Assembly: GCA_050305515.1 (NCBI GenBank)
Contig: JBNLFL010000016.1
Span: 17,496 to 81,495 of the forward strand
DNA length: 64,000 nucleotides
Source: Sulfurimonadaceae bacterium
Lineage (GTDB): Bacteria; Campylobacterota; Campylobacteria; Campylobacterales; Sulfurimonadaceae
Direction: 5' to 3'
Positions 5,318 through 63,049 of the stretch are shown piece by piece. Position numbers and translations under genes: made by a program. Each line of letters starts with the position of its first letter. Position 1 is the stretch's first letter. The notes beneath the pieces were generated by a model, which was given only the letters and a program-made list of their open reading frames with translations, was not told the DNA's origin and did not search any database.

Positions 5318-7096
5318 ATGAAAGCTATTACAGGCATCATTGCGGCGATGGCAGCACTTTTTCTGCTGTCGGGGTGTGATGAGAGCAGTTTCGAGTGTGG
5401 AACGGGCCAGAAAGCTCTTAATGGAGAATGTGTCGCCAAAACCTGTCAGGCGGATGGCTATCAGTGTCCCGATTGTAATACGGCAATTGGTGAGACGCTT
5501 GGATATTTTGCAGATGAAAGCGGTTTTTGTAAGGTAACCTGGTGTCCTGATGCGCAGGGCAATCCGGATGAAGACTTTAAATGGGTCGATCACAACGAGA
5601 CTTTTGCCGAATGTATCGCCAAAACCTGTCAGACTGACGGTTACCAGTGTCCTGAATGTAATGAAGTGGGTGGTGAAACACTGCTTTATTTTGCTGATGA
5701 AAGCGGTTTTTGTAAGGTGACTTGGTGCCCGGATGCACAGGGCAATCCGGATGAAGACTTCAAATGGGTCGATCACAACGAGACTTTTGCCGAATGTGTT
5801 GCCAAAACCTGCCGTGATGATGCCTATGGCTGTCCGAGTTGCGCAACCTATGAAAAGCTGACTTACAGCAGTGACGGGAGTGGAACCTGCGTGGTAAAAA
5901 ACTGCCGTGACGACGGATATAACTGCCCCAGTTGTGATGCCTATGAACGTATCGTATATAATGGCGATGGTACGGCCTACTGTACCAGCAAGCCATGCGC
6001 TTATCCGACTGTTGGAAGTCGTTATGCACTCAGTAATCTGGTGATCCCGATGTGTAAAGTGCGACTCAAAAACGGCCAGACATTGAGCGTTGACCTTGGC
6101 ATCGGCAGTGGTGCCAGTACGCTCAGCGGCAAAAGCAATTTTGTTACCGGTAACGGGTTGAGCCTTAATTGTGGAGATGTTTCCGGCGTCTGCCCCGGCA
6201 GTGCTGCCGCAGACGATAAAATCATGCCTTTGCGTGAGAGTGACTTCACTCCGGCGGTTTTGGAATTTGAACTGAATGAAGCGATGAATCGTGCGACCCT
6301 GACCAAAATCACCACAATCAAAGATAGCAGCAACCATGCCATCAGTGCACTGTTTCATCCCTTAATGGAAAGCAATTCCTCCAAGCATGCTTATGACAGA
6401 AATGGTAATGAAATCGCCTATAATCCTAACGCCATAGATACTGAAGCGGTCGTCAGACTCTCTGCAGATCGTGGTTATTGGGTGGGTGATGCCTATACTG
6501 CCTCGATTGCCCATCTGGATGAAAACGGCGTGATTACAAAACGTTTTGTACCGCAGGGATGGATGTTTACAACCAATTATGATGTCAATGACTCGCTTCC
6601 TGCCACTCTTGCCTCTCGTGCACCTTATGGCGGGATTGAAGCGATTGCGGTGGATGAAACCAATCAGTTGCTTTATTTCATGACGGCAACACCGCTTTCG
6701 ACAGATGCCAATACCAATCTTCGCCTCTATACAGTCTCGCTTAATGCGGGGCTGGATGATATTGCGCTTCCTGTAGCTATCAGCAATGACCATAATTACA
6801 CGCTTGCAAGCTCCGGCCATCGTGTATCGGAAATGTATCTTAGCAGTCCGGGAACGCTTCTTGTTGTCGAACATGACGGTACGAATACGCAGCTCTATCG
6901 TGTACCGATCAGCGGTGCAACACTCAGCAAAAATGCTGTAGCAATTTCGGGAACAACGCCATCGGATGTCCAGGCATTTGCACCGGCACCTATGGGTGGA
7001 AGCAGCCGCTTCTTCTTTGCAAACGATAACAATTTTGGGCAAAATGGCAGTGCCAACCAAATGCTTTTCGTTGATCTTAACACGACAGGATTTTGA
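5318..7096 (+). CDS. Lipoprotein with N-terminal Cys-rich tandem modules and a large C-terminal globular (beta-propeller-like?) domain
   Basis: Signal peptide plus lipobox (LLSGC). Two near-identical 61-aa modules (AKTCQxDGYQCPxCN...[30 protein letters not shown]) are followed by shorter CxxDxYxCPSC modules. The C-terminal ~330 aa family is not identified with confidence. Confidence 0.7.
5435..5800 (+). repeat. Tandem direct repeat, 2 x 183 bp (in-frame, intragenic), with a degenerate third unit starting at 5801
   Basis: Units start at 5435, 5618 and 5801, each with GCCAAAACCTG. Long identical stretches include GATGAAAGCGGTTTTTGTAAGGT and GGCAATCCGGATGAAGACTT. Confidence 0.9.
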
Positions 7097-8484
7097 TCAT
7101 GAAACATAATATTTTTCTTTCAATGATTTTGGTCGGGACATCGCTCAGTGCCGGATATGTCGATCATCTCCATCTTCGCGGCGGTGTGAGTAAGGCATTC
7201 ATGGATGAAGCTGATAGCAGCAAAGTCGATACGAAAACCATTAAATCGGTTGGCTGGATTTACGATCTGTCTGCGGTTTTTAACGTTGCGGACGAGGGCT
7301 TTTTCAGTGAGTTCAAGCCCTATATTGATTTTTCCGGACGTCATTATGATGACCGGAGTGCCAATACGGCAGGGGTTGGTCTTTACCATGACTTTGATCC
7401 TGTCGCAGGATTCACCCCTTTTGCATCCGCAGGTATCGGTTACGGACAAATGCGCTGGGAAAATGTTCCGCTGAAGGGAACGGTAGATCGTGACAAAGGG
7501 ATGTCCAGTGCCGTTGGAACTTTACAGGGAGGGCTTTATATGCCGCTTCTTGACTGGCTTGACCTGAGTGCCGGAGTCCGTATGGATGTCTACAGTTTCA
7601 AGACCGAATTTAAAACCGAAGATCATACAACCTCCCAAACCGATAATTTTGCGCTATCAGGGCTGATAGGGCTGCGTTTCAAGTTCCCATCCTCTGCTTC
7701 GGATGAGATCATCGCGGCAGATGAGCCCGACACCAAGCTGCCACCGGCCAACATGGCGGCAGCCGCAACGGCCGCAACAACTGCCGCCGCTGTTACGACT
7801 GCTGTTACGGCTCCGTGTGATCTTTCAAAAACTCCGCGTCATCTCTATTTTGCATTCGACAGTGCCGAGCTTGATGCTCAGGCCAAAAAGATTCTGGATG
7901 ATTCAGCCGCATGTATGAATGAACACCCGGAAACCGTGATTGAATTTGAAGGTCATGCCGACAGTACCGGCCCTGCTGCCTACAACCAGCAACTGTCACT
8001 TAAACGTGCGATATCGGCTCGTGATTATGGTGTGACAGCTGGAATTGCCGCATCGCAGACCAATGTAGCTGCTAAAGGCGAAACCATGCCGATTGCAAGC
8101 AATGCAACACGTGAGGGACGTGCCAAAAACCGCCGTGTTGATATCTATTTCATCGATACAATACTGCCCGTTACGTTTGCATACAATGACACTTCCATCA
8201 CCGGACAGGTTGAAAAACTCAACGGTCTGCTTGAGATGATGCAGAAAAATCCGCAGAGTGCCATTACCATTGTCGGGCATACCGATGATGTGGGCAGCCA
8301 GAAATACAACCTGAAACTTTCGCGCAAACGTGCTGAAGCGGTTAAGGCGTTCCTGGTCGGAAACGGTATCGATGCCGCACGCATTAATGTTGAGGCCAAA
8401 GGAAAACTTGAACCCGCAGTAGAAGGCAAAGATGACGCTTCACGCGCGAAAAACCGTCGTGCCGAGATGACGGTACGCCATTAG
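7093..8484 (+). CDS. OmpA-family outer-membrane protein with two tandem C-terminal OmpA-like domains
   Basis: ATGA overlap with the upstream lipoprotein gene. Signal peptide, then a beta-barrel-like N-terminal half and an Ala/Thr-rich linker ([20 protein letters not shown]). Two OmpA peptidoglycan-binding modules follow, each ending in an NRRV/NRRA motif ([20 protein letters not shown]). Confidence 0.85.
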
Positions 8485-13075: not shown

Positions 13076-14504
13076 CGAGCAGCCTGGCAAGATTGTGAAC
13101 ACCTGTGACGACACCCGGCCATCCCTGCGCGGCATAAACGGAATCTCCCACGTTGTAGAGTCCGCGAAAGGGGGTGTCGTTACCCGGAAGACGGGGCAGA
13201 AAATTGCGCATGGTCATGGCATTGCCTCCAAGTTGCGAGCGTCCAAGGTAGTGCTCAAACGTTCCGGGCGTCGCGGCGAAATGATCGACGATCTGCGATT
13301 TTTTGATCTCCAGTGTATCACAAATACGCTGTAGAAGGTGTGATGCGAGTAGCTGCTTTTGCTCTTTGTAGGCAGCAGGTTCAAGGCCGCTCCACCATCG
13401 CGCATCCGTATGAATCGATGCGGTCACACTGTAGTGTCCCGGTGCTGCCATGAGTGCATCGGAAGGGTCGGAAAAAGAGACAAAGAGTGCCCGGGAGAGC
13501 GTTTGCGGTACGACTTTTGGAAATATGATTTGATAGTGGTGGGCAAACGCGGCACTGCTTTCAAGTGTCAAATAGAGCATAAAGGCGCTCTGATGGTTAT
13601 CGAGCGTTTCATACCGCTGATAGAAGCGTTTGTATTTCGCATTGTCAAAGAGGCGCGCCGAATTGTAGACGGTAGTATTGAGTATGAGATTTCTGGTTTC
13701 AACAGTGGCATTTTTGCCATGAAGCAGATAGCCCGATTTTCGGACTTCAACGTGAGAAATTTCGGTATTGCGGTGTATGGTTCGCATGTTACATGTAAGG
13801 GCGTCGAAGAGCGTGCCCATACCCCCGATGCTGTAGTGGTTGGCACCGAAGGTATAGCCCAGCGCCAGTGCGGCCGTGAGGAAGTTGACCTCTTCGCTGT
13901 TGCTTTGTGTGACGATAAGCAGCTGGGCGTCGATAAAGTCGCGGTACGCTTTTGAAAGCGTGCCGAAAAAACGGCTGATATAGCGCGACGCCGAGATGCC
14001 GATGTAGGGCGCAAACTTCAGAGCCAGAGGCATGAAGCTTGCAAGCGACGTGCATTTGTCCAGCAGTGAATGTGCGGAGTATCGATATCCGTCCATAGCA
14101 TAAAACTGCACGTTGATGTCGTAGACCAGCCTCCAGAACGCTTGGTTTTTCGCATGGGGATGTACCCGTTCGATCTCATCCAAAAAACGATCAAGATCCC
14201 GGTAACGCGCCACGCTTTTGCCGTTTTGAATGACAACGAGAGCCGGGTCGGTCGGAATGAGTTGCGGCGCGGTGCCTGCGGCGTCAAAAAGCGCTTTGAC
14301 ACTCTTGCCCGCTTCATACCCGGCAAAGGTCGTCGCTCCCGTATTATAGCGGCGCCCTTTGTGTTCAAAAGAGCTGCTGCAGCCTCCAAGAGAGGGCTCT
14401 TTTTCAATCAGCGCGACATCGTGGCCTCTGGCATCGAGCAACGCGGCAATGGCGCTTCCGCCAATACCCGAGCCGACAACGGCGAAATCATGCATAATAG
14501 GCAC
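13068..14504 (-). CDS. FAD-dependent oxidoreductase, phytoene-desaturase (CrtI/CrtD-like) family
   Basis: N-terminal dinucleotide-binding fold (FAVVGSGIGGSAIAALLDARGHDVALIEKEPSLGG) and a C-terminal GDSVYAAQGWPGV motif typical of the amine-oxidase/CrtI family. Confidence 0.8.
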   Translation of the reverse strand: MPIMHDFAVVGSGIGGSAIAALLDARGHDVALIEKEPSLGGCSSSFEHKGRRYNTGATTFAGYEAGKSVKALFDAAGTAPQLIPTDPALVVIQNGKSVARYRDLDRFLDEIERVHPHAKNQAFWRLVYDINVQFYAMDGYRYSAHSLLDKCTSLASFMPLALKFAPYIGISASRYISRFFGTLSKAYRDFIDAQLLIVTQSNSEEVNFLTAALALGYTFGANHYSIGGMGTLFDALTCNMRTIHRNTEISHVEVRKSGYLLHGKNATVETRNLILNTTVYNSARLFDNAKYKRFYQRYETLDNHQSAFMLYLTLESSAAFAHHYQIIFPKVVPQTLSRALFVSFSDPSDALMAAPGHYSVTASIHTDARWWSGLEPAAYKEQKQLLASHLLQRICDTLEIKKSQIVDHFAATPGTFEHYLGRSQLGGNAMTMRNFLPRLPGNDTPFRGLYNVGDSVYAAQGWPGVVTGVHNLARLLDA

Positions 14505-55268: not shown

Positions 55269-55442
55269 CGAAAGTTTTGTTTTCTTTTTCATCAACTTCT
55301 TTGGAGTACTTAAAAGTAGCCTCGTCACCTTTTTATCATTGCTGTGAGATAGTAATGGGGGGGGAGTGGGGCTTCTGGTGGAGCTTTATGATATTATATT
55401 GCGTACTGCTTTTAATTACCACGGGGGAGTTATAATAGATAT

Positions 55443-56402
55443 ATGTATAATTCATTGATTGACAAAGAGTTTCAAAGAATTATCTTAAATAATACTGCCA
55501 TGTGGTTAAATATGTTGGATAATGACGCTAACGTAGTTATGTGGAATAAAGCTGCAGAGAAGATAAGTGGCTATAGCAAAGAAGAGGTACTTGGCCATAA
55601 TAAAATATGGGAGTTACTTTATCCAGATGAAGATTATCGTACTTCTATTTACAATAAAGCACTTGAAATTATTGATAGTGGAGAAGAAATTATAGATTTT
55701 GAAACAACTATAATTTCTAAAGATGGTACTAAGAAAATTTTATCTTGGAACACACATCAGATGGTGGATAAAGATAAAAATATTATTGGTTCTCTTGCTA
55801 TAGCAAGAGACATTACAAAAATAAAAGCTCATGAAAAAAACCTCCAATTATTGACACTTGAATTAGAAAAATCAAATGAAAAACTACTTGAATTAAGTTA
55901 TGTTGATCCACTAACAAACATACCAAATAGAAGAGCTTATGACGAAAGATACGCACATGAGTTACAAGCCACAAAAAGATCAGGAAAAGAGTTCTCTTTT
56001 TTATTAATTGATATTGATCATTTCAAAGAATATAATGATATATATGGACATGAAAATGGTGATGTTATTTTATTTAGAGTCTCTAATCAAATAAAAAATG
56101 TATTACCAAGAAAAACTGATTTTATTGCGCGTTATGGCGGTGAAGAAATAGTAGTAATACTCTCTTATACACCTCTAAAGGAAGCACAAATTATTGCAAA
56201 AAAAATTCTTCAATCTATACGTGACTTAAATATTGAACACTCATATTCAAAGTTTGATCGATTGTTAACTGTTAGTATAGGGGTTACTTCTACAAAAATC
56301 TCTATTGAAAATGTAATGGACGATGCAGATCAAGCACTTTATAAAGCCAAGAATAATGGGCGTAATAGGTTTGAAGTCTACTCTGATGAACCTTGTTTAT
56401 AA
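55443..56402 (+). CDS. PAS + GGDEF diguanylate cyclase (active-site GGEEI with RxxD I-site)
   Basis: PAS domain (NVVMWNKAAEKISGYSKEEVLG). GGDEF domain with RKTDFIARYGGEEIVVIL. Codon usage is markedly AT-rich compared with the flanking genes. Confidence 0.85.
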   Translation: MYNSLIDKEFQRIILNNTAMWLNMLDNDANVVMWNKAAEKISGYSKEEVLGHNKIWELLYPDEDYRTSIYNKALEIIDSGEEIIDFETTIISKDGTKKILSWNTHQMVDKDKNIIGSLAIARDITKIKAHEKNLQLLTLELEKSNEKLLELSYVDPLTNIPNRRAYDERYAHELQATKRSGKEFSFLLIDIDHFKEYNDIYGHENGDVILFRVSNQIKNVLPRKTDFIARYGGEEIVVILSYTPLKEAQIIAKKILQSIRDLNIEHSYSKFDRLLTVSIGVTSTKISIENVMDDADQALYKAKNNGRNRFEVYSDEPCL

Positions 56403-56577
56403 AGTTCCAATCTTCGACAGGCAAAGGCTTAGAGTTGATAAATCATTTCCGTTTCAATGCTAAAGGTAAAAACTTGTATTTTCTATAGCTACCTTATTTT
56501 GGGATTTTTTCTCGCTTTACAATAAGGGTTTGATCTGCTTTAGGGCAGGCTTTTAGGCACCTTTTTAGTGTAACTGA

Positions 56578-57333
56578 TTACATAATACTAGATGCTCTTA
56601 CTGTTAAAAGGAACTCTTTTTCTTTAGACCATGGATTTGATTTAGTATTTTCTAGTTCAATTATAAATTCTTTTTTGTTTGGATGATAAAGATGCCCAAG
56701 CCCATGCAAGCCATATGATTCAAATCTAGCATCTCCGCTATAAATCATCTTTTTATAGTGTTCTAGACAAATTCCAAGTAGTTGTTTATGTTTATCGGGT
56801 CGATTATCAAACCACTTTTTCACTTTATCTTCATTGTATTCAACATAACCAGGCTCATCATCGCTTTTCAATTCTTTCCAAAAACGATCTTCGTCATTTA
56901 CTTGATATGAATTTACCGAATCTGAAACACTTTCGCAAAACATATCAAATCCATTTGGCATCATATAAATCGGATTTTCAAAAACATTTTGCCACAGCAT
57001 TTGAAAGAAAGAGTCTATTAGCTCTTTTATCAATTCAACATCATCGAACTTATTAATCACAAAATTTATGCTTTCTGGTCCTGATTGTACAAACCATATA
57101 TAGACATCAAGAATATCTAAATCTTCATCTTTAGCTATCTGCCTATTTAATTCTATAAGATTTCTTGCATACTTCTCACAACGAGCACATTGGATCATAG
57201 GTGCTTCATCAGCATAATACCAATTATCATCTTTTCTGAATAACAGTTCTTGTAGTTGGGACAGATTCAAATCATCTAAGTCAATAATATCAATGTGTTC
57301 ATGATCTATTTCGTCATTCATATCATTTCTCAA
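56578..57333 (-). CDS. Hypothetical acidic protein (251 aa), partner of the HEPN-motif gene
   Basis: AT-rich ORF 44 nt downstream of the 393-aa gene on the same strand. No recognisable domain. Very acidic N-terminus (DEIDHEHIDIIDLDDL). Confidence 0.55.
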   Translation of the reverse strand: MRNDMNDEIDHEHIDIIDLDDLNLSQLQELLFRKDDNWYYADEAPMIQCARCEKYARNLIELNRQIAKDEDLDILDVYIWFVQSGPESINFVINKFDDVELIKELIDSFFQMLWQNVFENPIYMMPNGFDMFCESVSDSVNSYQVNDEDRFWKELKSDDEPGYVEYNEDKVKKWFDNRPDKHKQLLGICLEHYKKMIYSGDARFESYGLHGLGHLYHPNKKEFIIELENTKSNPWSKEKEFLLTVRASSIM

Positions 57334-57377
57334 TTATTAAATTTTGATCTTTACATGTAATCCCAAAAGCACCATCT

Positions 57378-58559
57378 CTACTTTGCCAGATCTTGAAAAA
57401 CGCAAAGTGGAAACTCGTATCTTTTTTGATTATCTTCCTGATCTGACGGTGTATGGTAAAAGAGTTGCTCCAAGACAAGAAAGCCAATAATTGATGACTT
57501 AAGTGAAAACTCACTCGTATTCGCCACGCCGTGACCTACTGAGTTTCGTGAGATTTCAGCAGGTTCTCCGGGGGCAAAGTTTGCAAAATAGATTTTATTC
57601 AAATAGTCGCTAAACTTTGCTGGTAAGATTCTTGAATAACGCTCTTTTTGAATTTTCGACATTTTCATTGGCGCATTTGCTAAATTTTTTTGACTATATT
57701 GCGTACTGTTTATGAATTGATTCACACTTCTTAGAACCCCTTCAATACGGGGGTAAAGAATAGAAGTTGAACTAATATAATCTTTCTCTATAAATCTTTC
57801 TGCGGCACGCTCAAGGAGATCAATGTGCTCACCAAAAATATGAGAGTTACGCCATTTTTCAAGGAATTCAGGTAAAGATTTTTCAACTTCAGTAGCTATG
57901 TCAGTTAATAGCTCATCGCAATCCCAATCGGCTTTGACATAATTGAGTAGTGAAGTAATGGTTTTCTTTTTTAAGCCGATGAATGGAAACCATTTCTTTT
58001 CAAATAGTTTATCCCATTCGTCATCGCTGATTTTATGTAAGTCTTGAAAAAACAAGTAATTGTAGAAGTGGCCCAAGTTTGCCCAAATATCATATTCAAT
58101 TTTATATTCATTGTCGACTATTGATGTAAAATCAAAAAAGAAGCCTTTTCGCCATCCTTTCGATAGGATGACAAAGTATCCCACATCATTAGGTATTTCT
58201 GTGCCTTTGAACTCCAATGATACGATATCTGCAAAATCATCTTCAAAAACAGGGTCACCTTTTTTCATTGATTTTTTGATACGAGCTTTGGCAACAAGGT
58301 CTATTTCATTCAGATAAACATCACACTTACCATCTTTATGAAATATTGCAAGCATGTGGTCTAGCGTGGAACAGCGAATATTTTGATCTTTTGGCAGTAG
58401 ATTAATGACTTCTGTAGGAATGCCATCTAATCTACTTATAAATTCATCACCATCCTCATACGATGTAAATTCACGTGTGATAAGGGAAACATTTTCACCT
58501 GATCTGGCTTCGGTTGCAGTGTAGCCAGCAGGTGGGCGATCAAATTTTACAGTATACAA
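57378..58559 (-). CDS. Hypothetical protein with C-terminal HEPN-like (Rx4H) motif region, Abi-like
   Basis: 393 aa with a TTG start preceded by AGGAG. The C-terminal helical region contains ISRNSVGHGVA (R-x4-H, the HEPN nuclease signature). Its helices resemble abortive-infection C-terminal domains. The call rests on this motif alone. Confidence 0.55.
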   Translation of the reverse strand: MYTVKFDRPPAGYTATEARSGENVSLITREFTSYEDGDEFISRLDGIPTEVINLLPKDQNIRCSTLDHMLAIFHKDGKCDVYLNEIDLVAKARIKKSMKKGDPVFEDDFADIVSLEFKGTEIPNDVGYFVILSKGWRKGFFFDFTSIVDNEYKIEYDIWANLGHFYNYLFFQDLHKISDDEWDKLFEKKWFPFIGLKKKTITSLLNYVKADWDCDELLTDIATEVEKSLPEFLEKWRNSHIFGEHIDLLERAAERFIEKDYISSTSILYPRIEGVLRSVNQFINSTQYSQKNLANAPMKMSKIQKERYSRILPAKFSDYLNKIYFANFAPGEPAEISRNSVGHGVANTSEFSLKSSIIGFLVLEQLFYHTPSDQEDNQKRYEFPLCVFQDLAK

Positions 58560-58580
58560 TAGAGATGCTCCTGATTTGTA

Positions 58581-58621
58581 ACCTAACGGTGGTACGGGTT
58601 CAGCCCTTTGGGTTGTTAGAC
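58581..58621 (-). repeat. Short attC-like site candidate (41 bp), weakest of three
   Basis: Minus strand reads GTCTAAC-AACCC-AAAGGGC-TGA-ACCCGTA-CCACC-GTTAGGT. Both core boxes are canonical (RYYYAAC ... GTTRRRY), but the length is below that of known attC sites. Confidence 0.3.
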
Positions 58622-58622
58622 A

Positions 58623-58726
58623 AAAAGGGGACAGGCTACTTTAGCTAGTAAATGGGGACAAGCTACTTTTTCTTTACATGTAAAAGAGTTAGTGCTTAAT
58701 TTCAATAAAGTAGCCTGTCCCCTTTT
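58623..58726. repeat. 104-bp element bounded by 21-bp perfect inverted repeats (MITE-like or long-stem RNA structure)
   Basis: AAAAGGGGACAGGCTACTTTA at 58623-58643 is the exact reverse complement of 58706-58726. An imperfect internal copy lies at 58650-58670. A related copy, AAAAGTAGCCTCGTCACCTTTT, lies at 55312-55333 at the island edge. Confidence 0.7.
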
Positions 58727-59114
58727 CCTTAGGTGCGTTAATAATACTAGATATTTTATTTATATAGAATAAGTTAATTAATAATGGTACTCCAAGTACC
58801 ATAAGTGCCTCAATATACCAACCACTAAATAAAGAAGGAATACCACTAGCCCAAGAAGGAAGGATAATTAATCCGATTGAGCTTATCCACTTAATATTTT
58901 TAATAGGCATAATGTTATTTTTTATAAAATGTATTAAAAACAATCCAGAAATTAAAAAAATAGGAACTGCCGCTAAAACTAAAGTAATAAAACTATTAAT
59001 TTTTATAACAATGCCTAGCATCCATAGCATTTCATATTTTTTTAAAATTTTTCCAGAAATAATTAACAGATCAATTGTCCAAGATGCTGTATAGCCAGCA
59101 AGCTCCTGCTGCAA
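58689..59114 (-). CDS. Hypothetical multi-pass membrane protein (start uncertain)
   Basis: AT-rich ORF with three or four hydrophobic helices. The track start is TTG. The first in-frame ATG is at 59030 (MLWMLGIV...). The last 7 codons lie inside the right arm of the 21-bp inverted repeat. Confidence 0.45.
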   Translation of the reverse strand: MQQELAGYTASWTIDLLIISGKILKKYEMLWMLGIVIKINSFITLVLAAVPIFLISGLFLIHFIKNNIMPIKNIKWISSIGLIILPSWASGIPSLFSGWYIEALMVLGVPLLINLFYINKISSIINAPKEKGTGYFIEIKH

Positions 59115-59163
59115 GTCCGACTAAAAATATAATAATTGATAAATATATTTTTTTCATTCCATT

Positions 59164-59232
59164 ACCTAACGTTTAAAATGAGCCGATGAATTGCCCGCAG
59201 GGTAATTCATCGGCTCCTCTGATTTGTTAGAT
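59164..59232 (-). repeat. attC-like structured repeat, copy 1 (69 bp)
   Basis: Minus strand reads ATCTAAC-AAATC-AGAGGAG-[CCGATGAATT ACCCTGCGGGC AATTCATCGG]-CTCATTT-TAAAC-GTTAGGT. This is the 7-5-7-variable stem-7-5-7 layout of integron attC sites. It starts 3 nt after the stop of the 59236..59535 ORF. Confidence 0.6.
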
Positions 59233-59235
59233 CTG

Positions 59236-59535
59236 CTATCCAGCAAGTAATACTCCTATTGTCATATAGATTAACAAAATAACTAGTGCAATACTTCCCG
59301 CAATACGAAAAGCTTTTTCGAGGTAAAAACTTTTTGCTCGCAAGTATCTGGAAGACAAGAATAGTAACAGGGTAGTAAGCCCCCAAGAACCATACCAAAT
59401 AGGCAACATAATAGGTTGCTGATTTGGAAGATTATAAACAATTCCAAAAATCAAAAATAGCCAGACTGCTGCTACAAAAGAAGCTCCGAGAATAACTCCC
59501 AAGATTATCTGGCTACTTGATTTTACAAGATTCAT
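59236..59535 (-). CDS. Hypothetical small membrane protein (~99 aa)
   Basis: Start set at ATG 59535 (MNLVKSSSQIILGVILG...), because the track start at 59574 would lie inside repeat copy 2. Three hydrophobic helices. Confidence 0.5.
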   Translation of the reverse strand: MNLVKSSSQIILGVILGASFVAAVWLFLIFGIVYNLPNQQPIMLPIWYGSWGLTTLLLFLSSRYLRAKSFYLEKAFRIAGSIALVILLIYMTIGVLLAG

Positions 59536-59552
59536 TGTTTGTTCAATCCTTG

Positions 59553-59624
59553 AGCTAACGTTTAAAATGAGCAATCAAAAAGCCGCCCGCGGGTTTTTGA
59601 TTGCTCTCCTTTGATTTGTTAAAA
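59553..59624 (-). repeat. attC-like structured repeat, copy 2 (72 bp)
   Basis: Its arms match copy 1 (CTAACGTTTAAAATGAGC ... GCTC.CCT.TGATTTGTTA on the plus strand). The central 9 stem positions differ from copy 1 and remain perfectly complementary (AATCAAAAA/TTTTTGATT versus CGATGAATT/AATTCATCG). It starts 3 nt after the stop of the 106-aa ORF. Confidence 0.6.
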
Positions 59625-59627
59625 GTA

Positions 59628-59948
59628 TCATCTAATACTATTGACAGCTTCTTGCATAGCCTTACGTTTTTTATCAACTAAGTCTTGTCCCATTGCTTGT
59701 AATTTATGATTCTTGTGGAACAATAAATAAAGCAATTTTTCCATTGAACTTTCAGACATTTTAAAAACTTCATTTGCACGAGGACCGTAATCACGTTTAT
59801 AAAAGACATCATTAATTTGGATGGTTTCACCATATTCATCAATATGTTCTTTTCTTGCAGTTGATTCCCTCCAAGGAAAATAGTTATCTCCCATTTCCTT
59901 GAGATAGGAAAGATATATGTCAAATTCTTCAAAAGTAAGATAGTTCAT
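59628..59948 (-). CDS. Hypothetical soluble protein (106 aa)
   Basis: AT-rich ORF with GGAGCC upstream of the ATG. No recognisable family. Followed immediately by repeat copy 2. Confidence 0.5.
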   Translation of the reverse strand: MNYLTFEEFDIYLSYLKEMGDNYFPWRESTARKEHIDEYGETIQINDVFYKRDYGPRANEVFKMSESSMEKLLYLLFHKNHKLQAMGQDLVDKKRKAMQEAVNSIR

Positions 59949-60111
59949 AAAGGCTCCAATGTCTTTTAACTATTTATTCAACAAACATTATATAAAAAAC
60001 AGCCAGATAGTGCCAAATAAACAAACACAAAAAATGTTGGTATAAATGATAAAACCATTGCAAAATGCACTATCTTGACTCTTTTGAGCCTTACATGTAA
60101 GGGTCTATTTC

Positions 60112-60912
60112 CTACATCACCCCAACAACCATCTTGACACTCAGTGCCAGGGCCAAAACGCCAAAGATTTTTTTCAGAGTTCCCACGGGCAGTGTGGTGG
60201 CGTATTTAACGCCCAGCGGTGCGGTGAGGGTGCTGCCAATGGCTACCAACAACACGGCAGGCAGGTACACATAGCCTACAACCCAGTGCGTAGGGTCGGT
60301 ATGGCTCCAGCCGTTTATAAGGTAGCCCAGTGTGCCTGAAATTGCAATAGGAAAGCCAATAGCCGCCGAGGTGCCAATGGCGCGGGATATAGGGATGTTC
60401 TGATGCATCAGATAGGGCACGCTCAGTGATCCGCCGCCAATGGAAACCAGTGCGGAGATGGCGCCAATGAAGACGCCGCTTAGGATCTTTCCTGCGGTAG
60501 CGTGGGGCTTTGTATTGTGCGGGTAATCGCGTTTAAAAAACATACTAAGCGCCACCCATCCCATAAACAGGGCAAAAAAGAGTGCCAGATAGATGCCTTT
60601 AAGATACGACGCTACAAAGGTCGCCACAAAGGTGCCTGCCAGAACGCCCATAGCGATTTTTACGGCCAGATCGGTCTGGATGTTGTGTTTGCGGTAATGC
60701 GCCCGCATGCTGGCAAACGAGGTAAAGATAATCGTCGCCATCGAGGTGCCCAGCGAAAGGTGCATAATGCTCTCGTTTGCAAAGCCCTGCATGGCAAAAA
60801 GCATGGCAAATATGGGCACCATAATACCTCCGCCGCCAATGCCCAGCAATCCGGCGGCAAAGCCCACAAAGAGCCCCAAAACAGCGTAAGCAACAATAAA
60901 AAGCGGCTCCAT
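60112..60912 (-). CDS. TauE/SafE-family anion (sulfite/sulfonate-type) exporter membrane protein
   Basis: 266 aa with about 8 TM helices and Gly-rich motifs (GLLGIGGGGIMVP, GGGSLSVP) typical of TauE/SafE. Its start lies 2 nt after the stop of the leuA-like gene. Confidence 0.85.
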   Translation of the reverse strand: MEPLFIVAYAVLGLFVGFAAGLLGIGGGGIMVPIFAMLFAMQGFANESIMHLSLGTSMATIIFTSFASMRAHYRKHNIQTDLAVKIAMGVLAGTFVATFVASYLKGIYLALFFALFMGWVALSMFFKRDYPHNTKPHATAGKILSGVFIGAISALVSIGGGSLSVPYLMHQNIPISRAIGTSAAIGFPIAISGTLGYLINGWSHTDPTHWVVGYVYLPAVLLVAIGSTLTAPLGVKYATTLPVGTLKKIFGVLALALSVKMVVGVM

Positions 60913-60914
60913 TC

Positions 60915-62963
60915 TTACTCCTTGATCGCTTTGAGTCTTAAGCGCACATAATCAATATGCCATCCGTTTTTTGGGCTGTAAAGCGTTGGTTTGCATATTC
61001 TGCGAACCTCCTCTTTAAACACGCCAAACTCTGTGGGGCTTAAATGTGCCGTGACGCCGTTGGCAAAAAGATCAAGCCAGTGGCTAATGTCATCCACCGG
61101 GGTGGGGCGTTTGATCAACTCTATGTATTCTACTCTAAATCCCTGCGACTCCAAAAGTTTTTGGTAGTGCGCAACACTGGGAAAAAACCACGGGTTTTCA
61201 AACGCTCCAAACTCGGGATGTTCCTTAAAGGCCTGAGCCATGGCATCTACAGCGGTTTTGGCATTGCCCTCGCCGCCAAACTCCGCCACAAAGCGGCCCC
61301 CGGGTTTAAGCACGTTATAAATGTTTTTCACCACGCTATCGCTCTCTTTAATCCAGTGCAATACGGCGTTGGAAAAGAGCGCGTCAAAATGGTTTTCAAA
61401 AGGCATGTTTGTGGCATTCATCACGTGTGCATCCAGCCCTTTAGCCCGTGCGCTCGCAACCATCTCTGCGCTGGCATCCACCGCTGTAACCTTAGCGCCC
61501 GATGTCTGAATCTCCAGCGCAAGCCGTCCTTCGCCGCAGCCCAAATCCAAAATCTGCTCGCCTGCTTTGGGCGCAAGCAGATCCACCACGCTCAAGGCCA
61601 ACTCCGAGACAAACGCGGCATGTTTGTTGTAGGCATCGGCATTCCAGCGGTTTTCATTGCGCTGCATCATGCCCTCATAAATACCCAACACCTCCTCACT
61701 GCCAATCTCTTTGCCGCGTGTTTCGCTGATGAGTTTGACTTTAGCGGCCAATTCGGCCTGCATCTCCAAAGGTGTGTCGATGCCGTATATCTCTTTAAGC
61801 ACATACGCCACACCCCCTTTGCCCGATTGCGAGTTGATGCGCACCGTATCTTGGTAGCGGCGTTTAATATCGCGCGGATCAATGGCAAGATAGGGCACAC
61901 TCCATACCGAAGATTCGCTGTTTCGGTAATGCTCAATCCCTTTTTTAATCGCGTCTTGATGCGTTCCCGAAAAGGCGGTATAGATCATTGAGCCCACATA
62001 CGGATGCCGCTCACCAACACTCATGCCGGTAATGGCGGTAATACGCTTTAAAATCTCATCAATCCGTTCTACATGTAAGCGCGGATCAATCCCTTGCGCA
62101 TAGTAGTTAAAGGCCAAAGTTACCAAATCCACATTGCCTGCGCGCTCGCCATTGCCAAGCATGGTGCCTTCAACACGTTCGGCTCCTGCCAATACCGCCA
62201 TTTCGGCACTGGCCACGGCGCAGCCGCGATCGTTATGCGGATGCACGCTTATAATGACGCTTTCACGGTTGCGTATGTGCGTGCTCATCCACTCGATTCT
62301 ATCGGCATAAATATTGGGCGAACAGGCTTCAAGGGTGTTGGGCAAGTTCAAAATCATCGGTGCATCTGGCGTGGGGTTGTAGGCCGCAATAACGGCATTG
62401 GAAACCTCAAGCGCGTATTCCAATTCGGTCTGCGAAAAGCTCTCGGGCGAATACTCAAACACCACCGCTCCCTCAAAACGTGCCGCTTCGCGTTTCATAA
62501 TACGCACCCCTTCAAGTGCCAAGTCAATAATGGCCTCTTTGGAGCGCTTAAAAACCACCTCGCGCTGGTTGGCGGCAGTAGGATTGTACAGATGCATTGT
62601 AATGCGTCTGGCGCCTTTAAGTGCTTCGAAACTGCGCACAATATGCTTTTGTATCGAAGGGGTCAAGATGCCAACGGTAACATCATCGGGAATCAAACCC
62701 TCTTCAATCAAGCGGCGGCAAAAATCAAACTCGGTTTGCGAAGCGCTAGGGTAGGCAATCTCAATCTCTTTCAAACCAAAATCGACAAGCGCTTTGAAAT
62801 AGGCAATTTTTTGCGCAATTCCCATAGGGTTTGCAAGGGCCTGATTGCCATCTCGCAAATCGGTACTCACCCACGTTGGGGCAACAGTGGCACTTTTATT
62901 TGGCCATATTCTTTGGTGCAATGCAACCGTGGGATACGGCTGATATTTGACATGCGTCTGCAT
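60915..62963 (-). CDS. 2-isopropylmalate-synthase-like (long/type-2 LeuA catalytic region) fused to C-terminal class-I SAM-dependent methyltransferase
   Basis: N-terminal ~440 aa carry WVSTDLRDGNQAL, HLYNPT and HPHNDRGCAVA (HMGL-like TIM barrel of LeuA). The C-terminal ~240 aa carry ILDLGCGEGRLA...VDASAEMV...LKPGGRFV (methyltransferase motifs I to III). Start set at ATG 62963, preceded by TAAGGAAA. Confidence 0.8.
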   Translation of the reverse strand: MQTHVKYQPYPTVALHQRIWPNKSATVAPTWVSTDLRDGNQALANPMGIAQKIAYFKALVDFGLKEIEIAYPSASQTEFDFCRRLIEEGLIPDDVTVGILTPSIQKHIVRSFEALKGARRITMHLYNPTAANQREVVFKRSKEAIIDLALEGVRIMKREAARFEGAVVFEYSPESFSQTELEYALEVSNAVIAAYNPTPDAPMILNLPNTLEACSPNIYADRIEWMSTHIRNRESVIISVHPHNDRGCAVASAEMAVLAGAERVEGTMLGNGERAGNVDLVTLAFNYYAQGIDPRLHVERIDEILKRITAITGMSVGERHPYVGSMIYTAFSGTHQDAIKKGIEHYRNSESSVWSVPYLAIDPRDIKRRYQDTVRINSQSGKGGVAYVLKEIYGIDTPLEMQAELAAKVKLISETRGKEIGSEEVLGIYEGMMQRNENRWNADAYNKHAAFVSELALSVVDLLAPKAGEQILDLGCGEGRLALEIQTSGAKVTAVDASAEMVASARAKGLDAHVMNATNMPFENHFDALFSNAVLHWIKESDSVVKNIYNVLKPGGRFVAEFGGEGNAKTAVDAMAQAFKEHPEFGAFENPWFFPSVAHYQKLLESQGFRVEYIELIKRPTPVDDISHWLDLFANGVTAHLSPTEFGVFKEEVRRICKPTLYSPKNGWHIDYVRLRLKAIKE

Positions 62964-63049
62964 GATAATTTCCTTACATGTAACAATAATAAAATTCAAA
63001 TGCCGCTAAGGGGCAAAACTAAAAAAAAGGGTAAAAAAGGGAAGAAAAA

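Follow-up and report, generated by a model that had tools for sequence, protein, structure and literature searches.

An integrase-less array of attC sites next to tauE in a Sulfurimonadaceae genome, very probably the remains of a Campylobacterota-type chromosomal integron

In a 64,000-nt stretch of a Sulfurimonadaceae genome (assembly GCA_050305515.1, contig JBNLFL010000016.1; hereafter the window), two structured elements follow consecutive small open reading frames (ORFs) on the minus strand. The locus raises the question of whether these elements are genuine integron recombination sites (attC) and, if so, what kind of array they belong to. We are confident that positions 57422-60063 of the minus strand are the remains of a Campylobacterota-type chromosomal integron platform, and that the locus is an integrase-less array (CALIN, a cluster of attC sites that has no integron integrase) with genuine attC sites. 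An earlier interpretation made from the letters alone (the sequence-only reading) had pointed to the same two elements, whose limits we place as follows (subfamilies A and B are defined below):

59162-59232, minus strand: attC copy 1 (subfamily A), described earlier as 59164-59232; crossover between 59170 and 59169.
59551-59624, minus strand: attC copy 2 (subfamily B), described earlier as 59553-59624; crossover between 59559 and 59558.

Read box by box on the minus strand, copy 1 is ATCTAAC/AAATC/AGAGGAG/stem/CTCATTT/TAAAC/GTTAGGT and copy 2 is TTTTAAC/AAATC/AAAGGAGAG.../CTCATTT/TAAAC/GTTAGCT, in agreement with the attC layout proposed for two elements of about 70 nt. The core sites of copy 1 are perfect for RYYYAAC and GTTRRRY, and copy 2 has one mismatch to each. 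Both sites are co-oriented with their ORF and start 3 nt past its minus-strand stop codon, as had been described. The near-identity of the arms is borne out by the 18-mer GCTCATTTTAAACGTTAG, found exactly twice in the window (59166-59183 and 59555-59572, minus strand) against 0.06 occurrences expected from shuffles; the 5' arm TAACAAATCARAGGAG is also common to both elements. As single-stranded DNA, both fold on both strands far better than shuffled sequences. On the plus strand, which is the cassette bottom strand, copy 1 reaches -19.0 kcal/mol (z -6.9) and copy 2 -18.2 kcal/mol (z -5.8), with CTAAC and GTTAG paired as the R box, unpaired 5-nt spacers, an L box and a terminal stem of 13-17 bp. 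In subfamily B the L'' arm is longer by one or two bases (GGAG-AC-C versus GCTC), and the two extra L-box bases previously noticed in copy 2 are indeed on that side. In the literature, attC sites are recognised by core sites of the form RYYYAAC and GTTRRRY, by R and L boxes with a central spacer that stays unpaired, by a terminal structure that varies, and by extrahelical bases near L'', on the arm that faces the bottom-strand AAC triplet (PMC5027507). All of these but the last are present at this locus; candidate extrahelical bases are seen in copy 2, and the length symmetry of subfamily A is weighed below.

How far this type of site extends was examined with a scan of 185,579 species-representative genomes for the 18-mer. 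It retrieved 71 loci, nearly all from Campylobacterota (the genera Sulfurimonas, Sulfurovum, Arcobacter, Halarcobacter, Malaciobacter, Sulfurospirillum and Sulfuricurvum); outside this phylum there were one Prosthecochloris isolate and one contig labelled Thermoplasmata. The upstream halves of the sites form two subfamilies, A (...CAGTGGAGCCAATAAATTACCCTGCGGGCAATTYATYG-) and B (...CAAAGGAGACCAATCAAAAACCCGCGGGCGGCTTTTTGATT-), each conserved across many genera; copy 1 belongs to A and copy 2 to B. This bears on the sequence-only reading, which had taken nine consecutive stem positions, different between the copies yet still complementary, as compensatory change. Because both subfamilies are family-wide, those nine positions represent a subfamily difference and not drift between two copies. 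The covariation itself is real, but it is a property of the family and not of the contrast between these two stems.

A plain MAFFT alignment of both subfamilies left the stems out of register, and RNAalifold gave no structure on it; the remedy was a subfamily-B model with a hand-written structure, to which all sequences were re-aligned. Covariance model R1 was built from 47 subfamily-B sequences, none of them from the window, with an explicit R box/spacer/L box/stem structure, and a broader model, R2, was built from 150 hits. In the window, R1 finds only the two elements (copy 2, 96.1 bits, E 1.6e-22; copy 1, 59.0 bits, E 1.2e-12), which R2 scores at 91.8 bits for copy 2 and 76.7 bits (E 2.9e-16) for copy 1. 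Over the 71 loci, R1 gives 293 hits in 502 kb, arranged in dense one-strand arrays with a spacing of 0.35-2.1 kb (11 sites in 6.3 kb in L065, 13 sites in 8 kb in L044, and arrays also in L028, L063 and others). The search for further copies thus returned same-strand arrays rather than scattered copies of the repetitive extragenic palindrome (REP) kind. Many solitary copies unrelated to ORF ends were not found: the window holds two copies only and the other loci hold oriented arrays.

In the alignment of the 150 best hits, which is fitted to the model and hence leans towards structure, 92.7% of cells are paired and 18 of the 24 pairs show double-sided changes, a result that none of 500 shuffles reaches. 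Sliding the pairing register by one column lowers the paired cells from 93% to 49% or less. Covariation is seen in all four helices, and TAAC and GTTA are near-invariant among the 150 family members. The slid-register controls, together with double changes in the terminal stem (e.g. in L014 and L032), are convincing despite the model-fitted alignment. Moreover, the best hit of both models in a segment of plasmid R100 is the known 60-nt attC of aadA1 (L073, 3001-3062), matched end to end on the correct strand (R1, 20.2 bits, E 0.0024; R2, 27.3 bits, E 6.6e-5). A scan against Rfam returned nothing relevant.

The two loci outside Campylobacterota deserve a separate remark. Prosthecochloris vibrioformis DSM 260, a Chlorobiota isolate (L038), has a near-identical subfamily-B attC at 1381-1453, and a 2.5-kb contig labelled Thermoplasmata archaeon M9B1D (L016) has three, at 207-280, 851-924 and 1885-1958. 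These sites score 88-101 bits and indicate either cross-phylum sharing of cassettes or mis-binning.

Does this attC family accompany integron integrases? With an IntI1 query taken from plasmid R100, where it was located via the aadA1 attC, tblastn finds full-length homologues of 44-45% identity in L056 and L014, a frameshifted intI in L055 and fragments in L062; Campylobacterota IntI queries add an N-terminal intI stub at the edge of L031. In all five loci, an array of this attC family runs divergently from intI. L056 may serve as an example, with intI at 7043-7990 (plus strand) and attCs at 6248, 5372, 1713 and 117 on the minus strand. The NCBIfam model TIGR02249, "integron integrase" (cutoff 265), scores 427 bits in L056 and 402 bits in L014. 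The sites in the window are therefore members of a family that flanks intI. Both this adjacency and the R100 hit are independent of the seeding with the 18-mer.

No intI gene or fragment, and no tyrosine recombinase, was detected in the 64-kb window: the best tblastn match of IntI1 has E = 0.8, which is noise, and two Campylobacterota IntI queries give nothing at E ≤ 1, while the same IntI queries did detect a Xer-like gene in the sister-strain locus L074. Likewise, the 8.2-kb Logan contig L001, which extends the tauE side, contains no integrase Pfam domain. The earlier statement that the window lacks intI therefore stands. By the published definition, a CALIN consists of two or more attC sites separated by less than 4 kb on the same strand, with no intI in the vicinity (PMC4889954, Cury et al. 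2016). Two significant attCs lie here 389 bp apart on one strand with no integrase in the window, and the locus thus falls under this definition, as the sequence-only reading had proposed. An intI gene adjacent to attI and array, which is the mark of a complete integron, is not found at this locus.

What, then, does the array consist of? From tauE onwards we distinguish the following features besides the two attC sites:

60112-60912, minus strand: chromosomal flank, a tauE/safE-family gene.
59967-60063, minus strand: attI-like leader with a palindrome-like element (atagtgcattttgcaatgg), a sigma-70-like promoter TTGGCA-18-TATAAT (60016-59987) and the core AATAAATAG/TTA; putative crossover between 59970 and 59969.
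59559-59969, minus strand: cassette 1, 411 bp, with ORF106 (59628-59948) and a subfamily-B attC; bounded by the attI-like G/TTA on one side and the attC G/TTAGC on the other.
59170-59558, minus strand: cassette 2, 389 bp, with ORF99 (59236-59535, the ATG at 59535 being taken; a predicted membrane protein) and a subfamily-A attC.
58587-59169, minus strand: cassette 3, 583 bp, with a 29-aa ORF and orf141 (58689-59114), ending in an attC remnant.
58623-58726, strand not assigned: insert resembling a miniature inverted-repeat transposable element (MITE), which has perfect inverted repeats of 21 nt (AAAAGGGGACAGGCTACTTTA) and, inside, a third copy.
58581-58621, minus strand: probable internally deleted attC remnant (GTCTAAC...GTTAGGT); junction between 58587 and 58586.
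57422-58586, minus strand: cassette 4, with ORF393 (57378-58559); 3' end truncated and attC lost.

Along the minus strand, the tauE stop (60112) is followed by about 140 nt of AT-rich DNA, ORF106 (59948-59628), element 2, ORF99 (59535-59236), element 1, the 29-aa ORF and orf141 (59114-58689), the 41-nt candidate (58621-58581), ORF393 (58559-57378), ORF251 (57333-56578) and a convergent PAS-GGDEF gene. The leader begins about 50 nt from the end of tauE, and its G/TT crossover lies about 140 nt from it. The cassettes that the sequence-only reading had put at about 390 and 580 bp come to 411, 389 and 583 bp when measured between G/TT junctions. GC content is 31-37% from about 55300 to 60100, in a window of about 50% GC; the cassettes themselves have about 33% GC versus about 50% in the host, and their ORFs are orphans. 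No Pfam, NCBIfam or PADLOC family was found for any cassette ORF or for ORF251.

The low-GC island extends beyond the truncated array and includes ORF251 and the convergent PAS-GGDEF diguanylate cyclase gene (55443-57333). We considered these two genes as further cassettes and rejected them: no attC is detected on either strand, and the homology of cassette 4 to its relatives ends at about 57422. Homologues of the GGDEF gene, at 34-40% identity, are present in two attC-bearing loci, L009 and L053.

The array appears not to be headless, as it begins with an attI-like leader carrying a promoter-like site. The motif TATAATG-N7-AWTAAATAGTTA, in its 26-nt form TATAATG-N7-AATAAATAGTTA (59992-59967), occurs once in the window, with 0 expected. 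It is present in 11 other loci, and as a close variant in L078, always upstream of an attC array and on the same strand; L014 and L055 have it between intI and the first cassette. An alignment of ten sequences shows that about 100 nt before the motif are conserved, including the palindrome-like element and the -35/-10 pair, and that similarity ends right after AATAGTTA, i.e. after G/TTA. A junction between attI and attC would be expected to look like this, conserved on one side and divergent on the other. The promoter-like site matches 11 of 12 consensus positions. Based on the distribution of the motif and on its homology to intI-proximal sequence, we read 59967-60063 as an attI-like leader with moderate confidence.

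The genes upstream of the leader differ from locus to locus (htpG-like in L018, guaB-like in L051, rpsR in L078, tauE here). The leader heads arrays without an upstream intI in L005, L010, L018, L020, L024, L043, L051 and L078; in L024 it is present twice on the same strand, at a distance of 3.6 kb. Judged by eye, L051 apparently keeps only the first few intI codons, which points to deletion. A tentative extension, to which we give rather little weight, is that orphan units of leader plus cassettes could be a recurrent, possibly selected or mobile, architecture in Campylobacterota. Such a unit would be a module of about 100 nt (palindrome, promoter and AATAAATAG/TTA core) heading intI-less arrays after unrelated housekeeping genes (htpG, guaB, rpsR, tauE). 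If true, these units would be integrase-independent expression platforms that a trans-acting IntI could still load at the leader, and they would blur the boundary between integron and CALIN.

Is there any sign that these cassettes have moved? The answer comes from the fourth cassette and the short site in front of it. ORF393 belongs to an uncharacterised family, and the closest relatives of its cassette are in L082 (85% nucleotide identity) and in L078, a Sulfurimonas metagenome-assembled genome (MAG; 80%). The alignment to L078 (5974-7141) and L082 (3428-4585) starts exactly at the G of GTTAGGT (window position 58587) and ends at about 57422-57429. In both relatives this is the first cassette, joined to the leader (...AATAAATA/GTTAGGT), and has its own attC behind it (L082, 4595-4668, 81 bits; L078, 7141-7209, 44 bits). 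In the window it follows the 41-nt remnant instead, and its last ~45 nt and attC are replaced by unrelated sequence. The junction falls exactly at G/TT, as cassette mobility had been expected to show: the boundary is at G/TTAGGT in the window, in L078 and in L082. One cassette in three genomic contexts argues that cassettes move as units of ORF plus attC with G/TT boundaries. In addition, an ORF393 homologue of Vibrio harveyi (57% amino-acid identity) lies between VCR-type repeats of about 130 nt (CTAACAAAC...GGCGTTAGGC), a typical superintegron context.

The short site at 58581-58621 had been proposed as a third candidate. Its GTCTAAC and GTTAGGT boxes are present, but it forms no stem on folding (z +0.3) and is not significant as an attC with R1 and R2 (11-13 bits, E = 2-7). 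We ruled out a minimal functional attC on these grounds (no fold, E > 1). Nevertheless, a cassette that occurs in other genomes has its left boundary exactly at this GTTAGGT. The site is best read as an internally deleted attC remnant, and it does mark a true cassette junction. Next to it, the 3' end of orf141 is replaced by the MITE-like insert, whose repeat is present three times where 0.09 copies would be expected; in the sister-strain locus the same 15-mer is found again (L074, 14387-14401), some 20 nt upstream of where an rve transposase gene starts. Residues 5-124 of orf141 match the Sulfurovaceae locus L047 (47% identity), and a homologue in the Sulfurovum locus L049 (29% identity) sits exactly between two attCs.

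The host chromosome provides a further point of comparison. GlyA shares 82% identity with Sulfuricurvum proteins and 81% with those of Sulfurimonas; for TauE the figure is 70%, against a Sulfuricurvum protein. The host is therefore Sulfurimonadaceae-like, of the same phylum as the attC family, and not a foreign recipient; import of the low-GC island across phyla was accordingly rejected, the host itself being a member of Campylobacterota. A sister strain (GCA_050292685.1, L074) is 96% identical in nucleotide sequence across leuA-methyltransferase and tauE, and synteny ends 2 nt past the tauE stop (window position 60110). At the same flank it carries a different array, in the opposite orientation, with five attCs. 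Its cassettes encode BrnT/BrnA, Phd/YoeB and ParE-type toxin-antitoxin domains, and an rve transposase gene bounds the array. Together with the more distant relatives discussed below, this comparison identifies the tauE flank as a variable spot. Right after an AT-rich attC, L074 also contains a GC-rich inverted repeat of about 150 nt (~13540-13705, minus strand; ATAACGGGGGCGCGGG ... CCCGCGCCCCCGTTAT), which resembles an attC of a different family and is not detected by the family models.

The make-up and likely workings of the array may be outlined as follows. At its head is the attI-like leader with its promoter-like site; behind it come three complete cassettes of one gene each (411, 389 and 583 bp) and a fourth, truncated one. 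Two cassettes end in an intact attC whose bottom strand (the window plus strand) is predicted to fold into the canonical imperfect hairpin. If an integron integrase were provided in trans, it would cut the folded bottom strand between A and C of the AAC triplet of R', equivalent to G/TT on the top strand; cassettes would thereby be released as circles, or new ones added. With no integrase at the locus, the array would be a static reservoir, and cassette 1, and perhaps others, would be transcribed from the leader promoter. From sequence comparison, we infer that the leader may be an attI, that its promoter may be active, that intI may have been lost by deletion or rearrangement and that the sites may still be recombinogenic.

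Several observations weigh against this interpretation or parts of it. The models were seeded through the window's own 18-mer, and the window scores are therefore partly circular. Copy 1, like subfamily A in general, is length-symmetric, with an L box showing mismatches only, so that extrahelical bases are not evident in it. Promoter-like sites overall are not above chance in the AT-rich stretch (13 against 15.3 expected). About 10 of the 12 leader-bearing loci have no intI in the 0.9-2.5 kb of upstream sequence examined, and for this reason it is not certain that the leader is a plain attI remnant. Finally, more distant tauE relatives have unrelated genes downstream and no array or integron; loss of intI in situ at the tauE flank is no more than plausible.

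Could the elements instead be dispersed REP- or MITE-like palindromes, or simple intrinsic terminators, unrelated to integron recombination? Many MAGs do have matches on several contigs, an ATTTT follows each hairpin on the sense strand, and a terminator-like signal was reported for the hairpin of copy 1, though for the antisense strand. The hairpins could serve as terminators and as attC sites at once, yet a terminator role would leave unexplained the tight same-orientation arrays with one ORF per unit, their start beside TIGR02249 integrases, the recognition of the textbook aadA1 attC by a family model and the cassette boundary exactly at G/TT in three contexts. We therefore find this explanation barely credible. 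Only slightly better placed, and still very improbable in our view, is a scenario in which an integrase encoded elsewhere inserted the cassettes singly at a secondary, non-att chromosomal site containing GTT, so that there was never a platform here. Off-target insertion is a documented route to CALINs (PMC4889954; bioRxiv 10.1101/2022.09.11.507474), and the distant tauE relatives without an integron at the flank would fit it. However, the ~95 nt before the first G/TT are not native tauE flank: they are the leader common to 11 other loci, including the intergenic region between intI and attI in L014 and L055, and the sister strain is homologous no further than the tauE stop codon, short of the leader. 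Nor has the leader been seen so far as native DNA downstream of tauE in cassette-free relatives, which also speaks against this scenario.

More serious, at somewhat less than an even chance, is the possibility that the integron is complete, with an intI beyond the window or one cut off from the array by a rearrangement, and that this integrase still serves the array from elsewhere in the genome. Half of all CALINs share their replicon with an IntI gene (PMC4889954). There is an inversion or rearrangement in the sister strain, with an insertion sequence (IS)-type transposase gene (rve domain) next to its array, and a MITE related to that IS end is inside the window array. Against this, the array head, where intI would be expected, abuts tauE, and no integrase was found either in the 4 kb of the window that lie upstream or in the 8.2 kb of L001. 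This possibility is compatible with the CALIN call and not opposed to it. Considering all the above, we maintain that the locus is an integrase-less remnant of a Campylobacterota-type integron with genuine attC sites.

Two further observations concern the window at large. The 10-nt palindrome TTACATGTAA is its most over-represented 10-mer, with 24 sites in 64 kb against 0.01 expected (for example at 1366, 4206, 9017 ... 57351, 58674, 60091 and 62974). It has only five one-mismatch variants and no extended flank consensus, and about half of the sites are outside long ORFs. It is also frequent in some loci of Sulfurospirillaceae and Campylobacterales (8 in 8 kb in L035, 6 in L042, 5 in L003). 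It looks like an uptake-signal-like or HIP1-like iterated palindrome; a literature search for it found nothing relevant. The gene upstream of tauE (60915-62999) fuses a 2-isopropylmalate-synthase-like domain to an S-adenosylmethionine (SAM) methyltransferase domain in a protein of 682-694 aa. The fusion is kept in relatives (L074, L087), and L084 has a 446-aa unfused form.

Integrons have been reported in Campylobacterota (PMC8618304) and CALINs are common (PMC4889954), so the locus is a known kind of element, real but ordinary, and does not change the picture of how integrons work. It adds a well-documented CALIN from a little-studied lineage, a Sulfurimonadaceae-like MAG of about 50% GC from sulfidic habitats. 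It goes slightly beyond the textbook in three respects: its leader has been kept, one attC type is very highly conserved across families of the phylum, and the cassette junction is clean in three contexts. That one attC type is common to Sulfurimonas, Sulfurovum, Arcobacter, Sulfurospirillum, Sulfuricurvum and a Prosthecochloris isolate points to a common cassette pool. The same cassette with the same G/TT boundary, preceded by a leader in two genomes and by an attC remnant in the window, is direct sequence evidence of movement. Furthermore, arrays of this phylum that have no integrase often still have a leader with a promoter, and this bears on the expression of CALIN cassettes and on the origin of CALINs.

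Among known systems, the closest category is the CALIN as defined by Cury et al. 2016, with which the locus shares two intact attCs 389 bp apart, one orphan ORF per cassette and no intI within 4 kb. In contrast to a CALIN split from its integron, whose cassettes the integron cassette promoter (Pc) cannot drive (PMC4889954), the window array keeps an attI-like leader with a promoter-like site at its head. Whereas 95% of CALINs have no nearby intI pseudogene (PMC4889954) and the window locus has none either, the platform head is present here. The sedentary chromosomal integrons of Campylobacterota (the Sulfurimonadaceae/Arcobacter loci L056, L014 and L055) have the same attC subfamilies A and B, the same leader motif and cassette style, and share one cassette family (orf141); they differ from the window array, which has no integrase gene, is short, and has one degraded attC and one truncated cassette. 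The class 1 attC, or 59-base element, of aadA1 (In2, R100) has the same R''-5 nt-L''...L'-5/6 nt-R' layout (GTCTAACAATTC... compared with ATCTAACAAATC...) and is matched end to end by a model built from Campylobacterota. Unlike it, the Campylobacterota sites have another stem sequence and are AT-rich, and they are much more identical across genera than the sites of class 1 cassettes. Vibrio superintegrons, with VCR-type attC sites, differ in attC family and length, and Vibrio arrays have an adjacent IntIA; what they share with the window is the homologue of ORF393, 57% identical in amino-acid sequence, carried there as a cassette.

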